DNA of 64,000 bases from Eledone cirrhosa (lineage: Eukaryota). Both the position numbers and the translations under genes were made by a program. Positions 9,732 to 57,471 of the stretch are shown in pieces. The stretch lies in contig OZ024740.1 of NCBI GenBank assembly GCA_964016885.1, positions 189,162,001-189,226,000 of the forward strand, read 5' to 3'. The stretch's first letter is position 1. Each line of letters opens with the position of its first letter. The notes under the pieces were generated by a model. It ran no database searches. It was given only the letters and a program-made list of their open reading frames with translations, and was not told the DNA's origin.

Positions 9732-9916
9732 TTGAAGACTAAAATCCAAAGAGGGCTCGATAAGGATAAGTATATATCAAATATATGAGAACCGTAGAGC
9801 AAATATTTATTAAAATAACAGATTAAATTTAAGCAAAGAATCACTGCTTTTACCCTTCACGGGATCTTCTGAACAGCGATTCTTTGCTTAAACTTTAATC
9901 TGTTATTTTAATAAAT
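9732..9916 (-). mobile_element. Fold-back element in (TA)n; related partial copies at 24864-24990 and ~35680-35720
   Basis: Arms ~9804-9846 and 9874-9916. The tail carries a GCUC..UC-GAGC stem. The loop is a degenerate hammerhead-like CAGAAGAUCCC..GGGUAAAA. Confidence 0.72.
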
Positions 9917-10639
9917 AAATATATATATATATCTTTGTTTGTTTACACTCTCGCTGTCCCCTATATTTACGTGTCCCAACGACAGTTTTTAGCCGTTGCT
10001 CGCACCAACCGGAGGTATATGGTCTTTAAAGCGAAGGACCACTTTATTCATATATATATATATATATATATATATATTTATATATATATATTTATATATA
10101 TATATTTATATATATATATTTATATATATATATTTATATTTATATATATATATATATATATATATTTATATATATATACATATTTATATATATATATATT
10201 TATTTATATATATATATATTTATTTATATATATATTTATTTATTTATATATATATATATATATTTATTTATATATATATATTTATTTATATATATATATT
10301 TATATATATATATATATATATTTATATATATATACATATTATATATATATATATATATATATATATATATATATATTTATATATATATACATATTTATAT
10401 ATATATATATATATATAAATAATTATATATATATATATATATATATATATATATATATATAATTATATATATATATATATATATATAATTATATAACGAA
10501 GGAAATGTGGTAAGGAACCAGGTGGACCATATATATATATATATATATATATATAATTATATATATATATATATATATAATTATATATATATATATACAT
10601 ATAATTATATATATATACATATATAATTATAATATAGAT

Positions 10640-10692
10640 GAGATTCTACAGGACTAGATGTGTTTCATTCATTAGAAATCATCAGGAATCTC
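10640..10692 (-). ncRNA. Type I hammerhead ribozyme isolated within (TA)n
   Basis: GAGAUUC-CUGAUGA-UUUC uaau GAAU-GAAA-CA...UG-UA-GAAUCUC: 7-bp stem I, GUA cleavage triplet. Confidence 0.8.
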
Positions 10693-13600
10693 AATTATAT
10701 ATATATATATATATATATATATATATAGCTCAAGAATAAATGAACTGCGTTTGCATCTGTGTCTGTGTGTATGTTACATATAACTACTTGAGACTTGAGT
10801 GCTATTTGCAAGTGCGTTTGACAATACCTCCCTCACGGTCTCTTTCTATCAGTTTCTGAGGCCTTGGAATCGTTTAATTACCCTGCTCTTACTTCAGTTA
10901 ATAAACAAAAGAAAAGTATAGTATAGCCTGGCGACTCTGCCCTTAGTAAGAATTTTTTACGCTGGTACGCATCCACAAAGTTTGTGGGGGACGTGTAATC
11001 CACTTAAGTACTATCAAGTCCGGACTTACACCTGCCGAGGCCCTAACGTATACGAAATTTAACGCCCTTCTCTAAAACAAATTAGTGTATTTTTTTAAAA
11101 ATAATCATACATGATTATTTTTTATATTAATGTTATTGATAAAGAATAAATTATATATATATACATATATATATATATATATATATATATATATATATAT
11201 ATATATATATATATATATGTATATATATATATATATAAGAGAGAGAGAGAGATTTGTAAAATCCCGACCGCGGTGCTAAGCGGGTCTGGCTTGTAGTCTC
11301 GGCAGTCTCAGCATCGCATACTCTACACACATACATGCACACACACACACATATATGTATATGTAATTTTTGATTTAGTGTTAAAGAATGATAAAATAGA
11401 ATATATATATATATATATATATATATATATATATATATATATTAACAAATTAGGCCCCCGTGGATGTGTGGTCCTAAGCTATATTTCGGCGAAATTCGAA
11501 CTCTGCACGCTGAGAGACAATACTATGTAGTATTAGTTATTTTGTCTTTGTATTTTCTGCCATTAGACATTTTAAAAAACAAAGTGAAGACCAGTGAGAT
11601 TTGAATTCAGAACCTTAAGGCTTGAAGTAAATACACTAAGACCTCGATCTGAATCGTTACTTCTGCCACTTCGTTAGCCTTATTGAGAAGAGGAATTCTT
11701 GAGAATTAAATTAAAGTCACTGGAAAAGGATCCCTGAATGAAATTTTATTGGCTTGTAGAAGATTTCTTTTTTCGGAGCGCCTTCTGCCCAGAATGTTAG
11801 CCTTTAATATATGCAAATATTTTCTGATATCCCAAAGAATTCCCGGGCTCGGGTATGATGTATTCCCCATACCCACGTCTCTTGTGGGCCTTGCATTGCG
11901 ATTATCACTTTGATCAAATCGAACCCCCAAAGGAGTCGTTCGATCTGCTATAAAAACTAGCAGCCGGAGTTTTACCCCTTAGAAACTTAAGAGACATTCT
12001 AAAATAATGTGGTTCTTAATGTAGTATGTCTGTGGAAAGTAGTGGATGGTTGTTGCTGATATTCTTGGATTATAAGTTTGCCTGCTCAATTGGGGCTGAC
12101 ATAGGTTTACACAACAAAAATACTTTATAGCGATGTAATTCTTTTTAAATCGGTAACATTTTTAGATAACAGCAATGACATACATATTGTGGAAAGGTGA
12201 ATTTAGGCAATTTGACCTCAAATACTTGACTACTATTTTATTTTATCGACTCCACGGAATGATGAAATGAAAGGCAAATTCAACTTTGACAGGATTTGAA
12301 CATAGATATTTAAAGAGCCGGTGATACAAATGAATACCGCAAATCCAACCCTCAGCCGGTTGTACCAAAACAAATATCTTAGCATGTGTATGATGCTTAG
12401 GAATGATTTAGGTTGGATGGACATAGGGGTGGAGAAGAAAACTGGAAAGTGATTTTGATAAATTTCTCCAAAAAGAAAATAGTAAAAAAAAAACCCCCAA
12501 AAAACATCGTGAAATGGTAACAACATCATCATTATCATCATCAATAAGCGGTAGATGTTTAAGCATTTTTTCTCCTCTTAATGCGAATTTCTTCGGTATT
12601 GTAGTCTTTCTTGTATAGTTTCCATCTCAGCAGACTTTCCATTCTTGGAGTGTGCATAGAGCGCCTGTGTATGTGTGTAGTATACGTTCTCGCTTGGCTA
12701 CTTTCTGCAGACGCGCTTGGCTTGCATGTGCACTCTTTCTTATCCTCTTTCTCTCCCTCTCTCCCTCACATACATGTACTCTCTCTTCTCTTCCTGTCTC
12801 TTTCTCTTTCATATTTGCTCATATACTTTCTCAGTTCCTTTTCCATTCACTTCTCCCCTCCCTCTCTCTGTCTCTCTCTCTGTCCCCCTCCTTACCCCTC
12901 CCCCTTCACACATACACACTACAGTTGTCGGGCAATCTAGAGATTCCTCATCGCCAAAAATAAGAGTTACTGCTGCTACTAGTACCACTACTGCTGTTGC
13001 TACTACTGCTACATCTGCTGCAACTCTAAAGATTTGGACAGCTGCTGTTGCTGCTGCTGCAGCAATTGGCACCACTTTCACCGCTGTTTTGGTCTGGCTG
13101 CAATAAAATGTGTCATCTGTATGTATCTACAAGTGTATTTCTATATGTGTATATGTATGTACGTGTGTTTGTCAATGTATATATATATATATATATATAT
13201 ATATATATATATATATGTATTTACGCGTTGTTTAGTGTGTGTGTAAATATGTGTAGTCAATGCTACTACTGTTGTTGCTGTTGCTGTTTAGCCCCAGGTA
13301 TATGTTGATCGTTCAACCATGACCACCCTGCGTTTTAGTTGTATGTAGGACCCCATTATATTGTTTAGGAAGGGATTCATACTTAAGATGGTCAAATGTG
13401 ATTTGAGGCAAATTTAGCTGCTATTTCTAGAAGCTCCCATGCTAATTGTTTCACGATATAGTTGAATGATAAGACATTATATATAAACAAATGTTAAGAT
13501 AAAATTTGGTGGAAGACCACTGCAGTAGCGGCGAAAGGAGGAGAATGAAAGTGGCTTCTATATAATTACTGGTCTTGCTAAAGATAGCAACCAAATCTCC

Positions 13601-55400: not shown

Positions 55401-55538
55401 ATGTATATATATATATGTATATATATATATGTATATATATATATGTATATATATATATGTATATATATATGTGTATATATATATATGTATATATATATAT
55501 GTGTATATATATATATGTATATATATATATGTATATAT
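52440..55538. repeat. ~3.1-kb interrupted (TA)n array
   Basis: TA dinucleotide run with frequent G interruptions. Confidence 0.97.
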
Positions 55539-57149
55539 TGAAGTTTCCGTTGAAAATTGAAAAAGTCATAGGAGTGAAGAGTGCTCTATGTAAGTACCGG
55601 AGCAAAATTTAATGTATAATAAACAATACAATATAATTCATTACCAGAGGTTACCCGAGTAAGACGAATACGAAAAACGTCCTCATTCGTTCGTCGTACA
55701 AGGCAATTTAAATCATCGTGAAATATTTAAAAAGTCTCCTCAAGAAATGCAAGAGTTTAACTGGCAAAAATATATATAAATAAAAGTAATGCAAGAGATA
55801 TATAAAAAAATAAGGAAATATTGTTAGGGTGTGTGTATATGTATGTATATACACTCACAAATGTACATATGTGTGTATGTACAAATGCCTGTGTATGGTG
55901 AAAATGTGTGCGTAAGTACATATATGAGGGCAAGTATATTTGTGTATATGTGACCACAAATACGTATATAATATGAGTTTGAAAAGAAATTGTAAGATAA
56001 TATAGTTAACACGCATCCAGATACAGGTATTAAATACACATACGAGTATGAAAGCAAGCGTATAAACACACACACGCGCGGTTACTTATATGCGGAAGAT
56101 AAAGAGGGAAGGGAGTGTAATAGTAAAAAGAAGTGTCATTCTCGATATATGTATAAAAATGAAACAATATAAGAGAATGAAAACATTTTTTAAATGAAAG
56201 AGAAAGTAATCAATTATCACTAGAGAAAAGAAAACAAACATAGGTACGCACGTACACACATATATATATATAAATATTTATACACACAAATACGTACAGA
56301 CAAAAGCGCATGCATGCGTACATACATACACACGAGGCACGTATATATATATATATCGCCACATGTATATCTAATCACACGTACGTACGTACGCGACTAT
56401 ATATATATATATATACATATATACATACACACCCATATATACATATACATATACATACACATACACATACATTCACCCGCATACACACACACGTATAAAT
56501 AAGTATGCAAAAAACATAGATATAAAAAACATATATAAAAACACACATACACACATATATATATATATACGTACGCACGCACACATACGCAGGCGTTCTT
56601 ATACATATATAGAACGTATACACACATAAGCACACTCACACACATAGATACAGATTAGAAACCGGCCATATGAATAAATGAAAATATAAAATCGGCTGCG
56701 AAACAACAGAATATATCTGAAGTGGAAAACGCAAGTGACATGTGATATCACGTAGTGAAAGAAAATGGGGAAGTAAAATGTGGAATGTGAAGATATTAGG
56801 TAAGTCAATCGAAAAGTAGGAGGAGAGGGGTGGTGATTATGGTGGATGTGAAGTAAAAATAAAAATAAAGTTAAAATGAAAGTAAATCAGAAAGAGAAGT
56901 CTGAAAATAGGATAATATAAGGAAAGTGAAGAATAAGAGTTTATGGAGGATAAGTATCTGAAAGTGAGTTAAGTTTATATGAGCTTGAAAGCAAGTGTGA
57001 TTTCATGTGTGGGCAACTGGTGAAAATTTCTGTTTTATTGTATATATATATATATATATATATATATATTGTATATATATATATATATATATATATATAT
57101 ATATATATATATATATATATATATAATTATATATATATATATATATTTA

Positions 57150-57471
57150 TGAAAGTAAAACAAAGAAGCCTTCAATACATCAAAAGTCTTTATTAGCCAA
57201 CAATGTTTCGTCCTATTAAGGACTCATCAAGGCAATTAAAACAACAAAAAGTATTATCGGCCATTACAAGCTTTGCTTTGGACTATATTTGTAATATGGT
57301 TCTAAATGTTATACACCTCCTTAGTGATTTTTATTATATATTTTTACCCATAATCTTGCAATACTTTAGTGTATGTACACTCCAAATTCTTCGGAGTTTT
57401 CGGCTTGTATTGGTCGATAATACTTCTTGTTGTTTTAATTGCCCTGATGAGTCCTTAATAGGACGAAACAT
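57150..57471 (-). mobile_element. Fold-back element with hammerheads in both arms
   Basis: Arms 57203-57271 and 57403-57471, ~130-bp spacer, tail 57150-57202, (TA)n flanks. Confidence 0.82.
57196..57233 (-). ncRNA. Minimal type I hammerhead; plus-strand twin at 57441-57471 is truncated in stem III
   Basis: GCC-UUGAUGA-GUCCU uaau AGGAC-GAAA-CAUUG-UU-GGC. The twin has canonical CUGAUGA. Confidence 0.78.

Follow-up and report, generated by a model that had tools for sequence, protein, structure and literature searches.

What is the role of a small hairpin that recurs on both strands, in several repeat families, within 64,000 nucleotides of the Eledone cirrhosa genome (NCBI GenBank assembly GCA_964016885.1, contig OZ024740.1, positions 189,162,001 to 189,226,000; this whole stretch is called the window in the following)? 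The window is animal sequence of 31% GC, rich in (TA)n, and short fold-back inserts sit between its (TA)n runs. An initial annotation made from the letters alone had noticed here a stem-loop with an RCUC/GAGY base and a bulge, downstream of hammerhead ribozymes. Our analysis indicates that this hairpin is a real, clade-wide and apparently undescribed cis-element of a known clade of Penelope-like retroelements (PLEs), the Hydra clade. It occurs twice per element, and each copy likely (we put the probability at about 0.62) binds the element protein on the sense RNA and sets a start of reverse transcription in the UA-rich patch just 5' of it.

The hairpin and the elements that carry it

All ten stem-loops listed in the initial annotation were found in place and on the given strands, and further copies are marked in the table below. 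Two of the ten, beginning at 55583 and 37068, are indeed present, but as decayed copies, since other copies of their families have a paired base; a look-alike at 57170-57187 is not the hairpin motif. A strict scan of the window (RCTC, at least three Watson-Crick pairs, a 3' bulge of 1-2 nt, GAGY) gave 11 matches, some of which overlap or arise by chance, against a mean of 1.9 and a maximum of 6 in 30 block-wise dinucleotide shuffles. Matches followed by RCT numbered 6, compared to 0.13 in the shuffles. On the genome-wide scale (3.0 Gb), a U-A-closed pattern returned 105,268 matches, which may overlap and are in the majority copies of few families, versus 1,026 for a reversed control. The stability of single hairpins is modest (z -0.8 to -3.6), and in 9 of 12 hairpins the minimum-energy fold contained the basal helix together with either a bulge or an internal loop. 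The consensus reads RCUC, C or U, a free stem-loop, G or A, a bulge of UU, UC or UA, and GAGY, mostly followed by ACU.

The view that this is not a described motif was upheld as far as Rfam is concerned: no family matched the window at the gathering score, and two test leaders searched with E up to 10 gave zero matches and one chance match, respectively. An E-value scan of the whole window was dominated by microsatellite matches to microRNA models (best 150 of 474 rows). Papers are cited here for the sections that we consulted. A literature search, covering sources other than subscription papers and Repbase reports, turned up no paper on this motif. In the consulted sections of Craig et al. 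2021 (PMC8557442), neither twin hairpins nor the pairing of ends reported below is described, and the main text does not contain 'stem-loop' or 'hairpin'; the consulted sections of PMC3846280, PMC4209133 and a 2026 retrozyme preprint (10.64898/2026.07.22.740005) do not mention them either.

To which elements do the hairpins belong? A family A copy is bounded by (TA)n on both sides; its inverted arm stops 8 nt short of the hairpin, and its direct arm, which follows, reaches about 48 nt beyond. The same ends recur on kilobase-long arms and in a tandem array with a period of 3,531, and an intact open reading frame (ORF) was reached via the family A flank, with many near-identical copies (138 scored of 79,543 candidates). 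The 3,531-nt tandem unit holds an open frame of 784 codons. It encodes in a single ORF a reverse transcriptase (RT) with a C-terminal GIY-YIG endonuclease (EN), as judged by alignment; a Pfam search with the endonuclease part gave no match. The protein has RWR, DKT, a CxCx5C linker, CxxC and CxH, while CCHH, by eye, is absent. According to PMC8557442, the Hydra clade is marked by an RWK-type motif, DKT replacing DKG, the CxCx5C linker, CxxC and CxH without CCHH, and these C-terminal EN+ PLEs share with our elements the hammerhead, the (TA)n targets and an inverted copy with a tail. The assignment follows from these shared protein motifs; insertion in (TA)n as well as tandem and inverted structures with a tail were all seen here. 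Thus, by the sequence of their proteins, the hairpin-bearing elements are Hydra-clade PLEs inserted in (TA)n. The Neptune clade, our first identification, was ruled out by the Hydra motifs.

The motifs extend to relatives at 35-43% identity, found at 77 metagenome and 6 genome-collection loci and at none of the viral contigs searched. RW[KR] and DK[TS] were present in 44/44 stop-free relatives, the DK motif having been part of the search pattern, and CxCx5C, CxxC and CxH in 37, 38 and 38 of 39 full-length relatives, respectively. Some Hydra-type ORFs (L292-L297) lie on contigs filed in bacterial metagenome-assembled genomes, some of them (TA)n-flanked, and are probably animal DNA in these bins. 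Within this genome the link to an ORF was made for families A, B, C, D, I, K and S; families E, F, G, H, J, O and Z are known without a linked ORF. Introns in the ORFs were considered and ruled out, as at least L065 has an in-frame linker insertion. Such long N/T-rich insertions between the RT thumb and the endonuclease (L065:2-2182; L172:4235-6634) resemble those described for Adineta Penelope (PMC3846280).

The predicted fixed place after the hammerhead was also recovered, the hairpin lying 43-66 nt past the GAAAY core in the 23 of 37 elements with a core upstream of hairpin 1 (SL1). Eleven of the 14 elements in which no core was found have less than 80 nt of upstream sequence, and no core was matched for family C. 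In families A and S, the cores of the predicted ribozymes carry U3-A8 in place of C3-G8 (L061:1678-1770; L066 at about 7100-7145).

Twin hairpins and insertion ends

The hairpin had originally been taken for a terminal 3' structure. This does not hold, as each element has two copies of it in the leader that precedes the ORF. In the family A tandem array a second copy (SL2) begins 6 nt past the tail endpoint. Other families were checked through copies that read past the tail end: SL2 is canonical in seven of eight testable families (A, C, S in L066, D, K, O, and I with a long loop) and degenerate in the eighth, family B. Read-through (tandem) copies of families E and F were not present among the 4 and 10 loci examined. 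In the read-through copies the pair of hairpins lies between the hammerhead and the ORF, and SL2 is followed by the ORF start in all testable families except O. Only SL1 is ever copied into the tail, SL2 never being copied at an end, and each hairpin lies just beyond an insertion end.

The twin arrangement was also found in other organisms. The 66 relative loci that reach the ORF start, together with six families of this genome, formed 53 clusters at 75% identity. Upstream sequence of 140 nt or more was available for 45 clusters; 30 of these showed two or more hairpins, 12 one and 3 none, where shuffled upstream sequences gave 0.08 clusters with two. Each cluster was represented by the member with most hairpins, which biases these counts upwards, and some of the low-hairpin clusters are truncated contigs or non-element flanks. 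Under a looser rule applied to all 62 loci with enough upstream sequence, two hairpins were found in 43. SL1 and SL2 are 55-106 nt apart (median 64), and SL2 sits 15-65 nt before the ORF. The motif is likewise visible by eye in the consensus file of PMC8557442: it is canonical in the tails of Hydra-2_Amil (coral) and Hydra-2_Ajap (sea cucumber). The 5' end of Hydra-1_Ajap carries two canonical copies, and the 3' end of this consensus breaks off immediately ahead of the motif; the copepod element Hydra-1_Crog has variants at either end. As far as these sequences go, a motif of about 20 nt is conserved across at least four animal phyla.

How closely are hairpins and ends linked? We surveyed the window and 60 stretches of 10 kb (600 kb) at round coordinates with seven leader references. 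Of 102 alignments, 81 end at a TA run, and 78 of these 81 TA-adjoining 3' ends lie 0-13 nt 5' of SL1 (38) or SL2 (40), which bears out the proposed link to element ends. Measured as far as the first base of the TA run, most distances are 6-9 nt; allowing for shared TA letters reduces them to 2-5 nt. Only 32 of the 110 TA-like patches of these references fall in the 0-13 nt zones; for the 3.5-kb unit of family A, 29/30 ends fall in the zones, though 118 TA-like patches are available. Among 21 informative 3' copies from other organisms, 17 have their end close to a hairpin, at a position between 1 nt inside it and 8 nt 5' of it (10 rows at a contig end and 4 reading through are excluded, and some loci are related). 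The reverse prediction held once: an arm ending at 57147 has no hairpin, and another copy (L321) continues to a canonical SL1 about 10 nt later.

These numbers bear on whether the hairpins serve mainly in translation or packaging, with ends clustering there only through the UA patches. SL2 is constantly near the ORF start, and TA occurs within 10 nt upstream of 70/79 hairpins, as this explanation would have it. The majority of UA patches elsewhere, however, go unused, and in family O, where no ORF start directly follows SL2, the two hairpins and the two ends are retained. As the main function we find this hardly credible, although such a role would be compatible with one in starting reverse transcription.

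The two ends are also paired in a specific manner. Among 34 head-to-head pairs, 27 combine an end before SL1 (site 1) with an end before SL2 (site 2), two combine site 1 with site 1, none site 2 with site 2, and five have one unassigned end. One-of-each pairing therefore accounts for 27 of 29 fully assigned insertions, one of the exceptions lying at a stretch edge; in two selected sets the ratios were 32:0:1 and 36:0:0. Free choice would pair half of them one-of-each, and by hand arithmetic the binomial chance is near 1 in a million. In a motif-blind tail scan, about half of 57 tail rows showed the motif under a loose rule, and tailed families without it exist. The tails measure 60-105 nt here versus 30-40 in PMC8557442.

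The pairing weighs against a signal for RNA processing or termination, by which a factor of the host or the element would produce RNA 3' ends a few nucleotides upstream of each hairpin, followed by ordinary target priming from the 3' end. Processing signals lie beyond the RNA end that they define, which is where the hairpins sit. Two separately ended RNAs do not explain the one-of-each pairs, though, and the RT of a Poseidon PLE begins inside its RNA (PMC11167929). Overall, we regard this explanation as improbable.

The inner (5') ends of the arms were informative as well. In family A, 69/107 fall within stem II, 35-46 nt upstream of the predicted site of hammerhead cleavage (relative to L061:1764-1767), a cluster that may mark a transcription start or an RT stall. 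Five of 61 site-2 arms of this family begin exactly at the predicted cut and may mark ribozyme cleavage in vivo.

Covariation, strand and a proposed course of insertion

Covariation was counted by script in fixed register; a MAFFT alignment lost the register of the stem. In 83 hairpins, the pair above the bulge, where pairing was not required, was Watson-Crick in 77 (C-G 57, U-A 20) and G-U in 2. The resulting 79 paired cases compare with a permutation mean of 46.5 and were reached in 0 of 5,000 permutations, and three of the four unpaired cases resemble mis-picked starts or an extra base. The next two upper pairs (49/83 and 43/83 paired) were also above all permutations. On a FastTree phylogeny of 49 proteins, this pair of SL1 showed 9 changes on each side and 10 jointly, versus 19.8 with one side shuffled, with about nine switches between C-G and U-A; on the tree, the outer pairs and SL2 were weakly supported. 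There is hardly any variation in the basal helix, with G-C in 75/83, and a change from G-C to A-U at the base occurs mainly in this genome. Of the covarying fold that had been proposed, the upper stem thus stands, while the basal helix is kept in sequence with little covariation outside this genome.

This division is relevant to a signal at the DNA level, where the endonuclease would read the motif in donor DNA or a cDNA intermediate and cut just 5' of it, the ends being resolution cuts. Craig et al. attribute the tail to EN-mediated resolution (PMC8557442), the D. virilis EN required the tail for recognition, as cited in PMC11167929, and the basal helix is a sequence-invariant inverted repeat. 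It would nevertheless be hard to read, in duplex DNA, hairpin halves set apart by a spacer of about 8 to >60 nt with compensatory stems, and the ends of Poseidon in vitro are RT starts (PMC11167929). Upper stems moreover contain 15 G-U against 6 A-C mismatches in 80 hairpins (three dropped), where about equal numbers are expected. We therefore rate a DNA-level signal as rather unlikely, and the G-U excess gives modest support to a reading as sense RNA.

The same bias bears on a template-boundary element on antisense RNA. Here an antisense transcript would prime itself, giving the fold-back centre, and the RT would stop before the hairpin in the manner of a telomerase boundary. Self-priming on an antisense template was proposed for head-to-head repeats of PLEs (PMC3846280); unequal arms could also result from it, either strand can adopt the fold, and the closest solved folds to a low-confidence model of the family A protein (predicted local distance difference test, pLDDT, 64; 10 sequences) are those of telomerase reverse transcriptases. 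The G-U bias and an invariant U in the 3' bulge point instead to the sense strand, some arms start at the sense hammerhead cut, both outer ends adjoin (TA)n, and sense RNA serves as the template for Poseidon in vitro (PMC11167929). A boundary on antisense RNA thus appears quite improbable; the arms starting at the sense cut and the G-U bias favour the sense strand as template.

If each hairpin sets an RT start on the sense RNA, insertion could proceed as follows. The GIY-YIG domain would cut both strands of the (TA)n target; site 1 would serve as the start for extending one DNA end and site 2 for the other, with two copies of the protein probably acting on a single RNA. Both cDNAs would run in the same direction along the RNA, stall, and be joined at their far ends. 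The joined product would be a head-to-head repeat whose sole asymmetry is the interval from site 1 to site 2, that is the tail holding SL1, so that two primings would give the inverted repeat and the one-sided tail of Hydra PLEs. Starts on the 5' leader would yield tiny stubs like those in the window; long copies would need tandem or circular RNA. We infer the binding, the two enzymes on one RNA and the joining of the arms, and one-of-each pairing is most simply explained by two enzymes on one RNA, one per hairpin.

Several known systems can be compared. In L1 twin priming, both strands of the target act as primers on a single RNA, which leads to an inversion; there, the second site is opportunistic and the arms are not duplicates, whereas in Hydra elements both sites are fixed and the arms overlap. 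Our literature search turned up no study of PLEs on twin priming. The 3' tail stem-loop of L2-clade long interspersed nuclear elements (LINEs), e.g. UnaL2, is itself copied and is located on the 5' side of the priming repeats. It is likewise a small stem-loop, bound by the element protein and needed for retrotransposition in the stringent ZfL2 (PMC4176376), where for Hydra binding is our proposal, but it is single and read by a family-specific loop, unlike the constant base and bulge with a free loop seen here. We ruled out membership in this class, as the Hydra hairpin is twin, its element carries GIY-YIG and SL2 lies beyond the copied end. A precedent is PAc, the Poseidon element of Anolis (Frangieh et al. 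2024, PMC11167929), which cuts both target strands and extends both; two internal RT starts bound its tail, RNA 3' of the starts is required, and a dimer is predicted. The position of the Hydra hairpins 3' of the start, on uncopied RNA, agrees with this requirement. PAc belongs to another clade, its starts lie in one AC-rich stem-loop inside the ORF, and the consulted sections name no repeated recognition hairpin.

Some observations weigh against hairpins that set RT starts. From genomic ends, starts of the RT cannot be separated from its stops or from cuts in RNA or DNA, and the invariant basal helix is sequence conservation that would suit a reader of DNA or RNA equally, the strand bias being modest. 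Family B uses site 2 precisely despite its degenerate SL2. One hairpin in 12/45 clusters and none within 200 nt in 3/45 also fall short of a twin signal, and among the six published Hydra consensi, inspected by eye, Hydra-1_Amil and Hydra-1_Obim show only weak variants. Finally, families X and Y of this genome (the tailed family X having a Neptune-type linker, a clade name given by comparison with PMC8557442) and the Poseidon start region have two ends without the motif, so that the hairpin is not needed by all PLEs.

Features of the window and wider meaning

The copies in the window are listed in the table. Solo tails (window:13963-14021; L296) have a 5' end that adjoins the TA run exactly at the first base of SL1.

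Table 1. Hairpins, hammerheads and stubs in the window (new, absent from the initial annotation).
Feature	Position	Strand	Remarks
Head-to-head stub, family A	16297..16472		flanked by (TA)n; arm ends: site 2 (tail) and site 1
SL1, family A	16350..16373	minus	25 nt after predicted hammerhead cut
Head-to-head stub, family A	20922..21121		SL1 variant with basal-helix G-U pair, 20969-20992 minus (new)
Head-to-head stub, family A	35456..35624		SL1 35510-35533 minus (new)
SL1, family C	9755..9800	minus	long loop; lies in head-to-head stub 9714-9917; L068/L168 hold SL2 and the parent ORF
SL1, family C, second copy	24887..24932	minus	new
SL1, family D	26919..26943	minus	in head-to-head stub 26858-27300; parent ORF and SL2 in L130/L172
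Type I hammerhead core, family D	26994..27048	minus	mirror copy 27192-27246 plus
SL1, family B	34948..34967	plus	1-nt bulge; head-to-head stub 34858-35013; parent: degenerate SL2, then ORF
SL1, family B-like	13963..13982	plus	opens solo 59-nt tail between (TA)n runs
SL1, family I, decayed	55583..55603	minus	parent: long-loop SL2 and Hydra-type ORF (L330, L333)
SL1, family F	34004..34027	minus	no read-through copy among 10 loci
SL1, family G	37068..37117	plus	in head-to-head stub 36856-37162
SL1, family E	37222..37241	minus	second copy 22136-22155 minus (new); no read-through copy among 4 loci
SL1, family H	44465..44498	plus	in head-to-head insertion 43711-44619
SL1, family J	35257..35277	plus	about 12 nt past end of inverted arm (new)
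Head-to-head stub, family O	26564..26758		site 1 and site 2; SL1 partly lost; parent SL2 canonical
Stub with hammerhead, family Z	57147..57490		arm ending at 57147 stops at site 1, without hairpin

Other repeats were also observed. Another PLE family (window:61448-62047, 24381-24441; L091, L174) has a Neptune-type linker and a canonical hammerhead without the hairpin; an identical hexamer, ATATCG, follows each of its two end sites and is perhaps a twin signal of its own. A fold-back family (window:32749-33098) has a 41-nt tail with a different small hairpin and no RCUC motif; no parent element was found for it. A LINE-type element within a TA run (window:57714-60951, minus) carries an APE endonuclease and an RT (Pfam) in two frames split by one stop, and a search of sequencing runs with it listed none of RNA. 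A 91-bp tandem unit is repeated in five copies, 93% alike, at window:38389-38846. A short interspersed repeat, at approximately window:5650-5750, 6030-6190, 7700-7835, 23340-23520 and 25470-25640, resembles a cephalopod short interspersed nuclear element.

According to the literature, it is open how PLEs, the sister group of telomerase, select their RNA and form inverted repeats with a one-sided tail. With the hairpin, more than 100,000 matches to the pattern in this genome are explained as ends of retroelements, and Hydra-type non-coding passengers gain a marker. As the motif is duplicated and tied to both insertion ends, exact mutations can be tested in the existing in vitro assay. More tentatively, and with somewhat less than even odds in our estimate, the two hairpins may load two telomerase-like RTs on one RNA, so that both cut ends are extended at once. 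Besides the LINE and long terminal repeat (LTR) routes, such programmed twin priming would be a third mechanism of insertion, and it would be what gives PLEs their inverted repeat and tail. If this is true, any RNA would be directed into (TA)n sites by a portable cassette of two hairpins.

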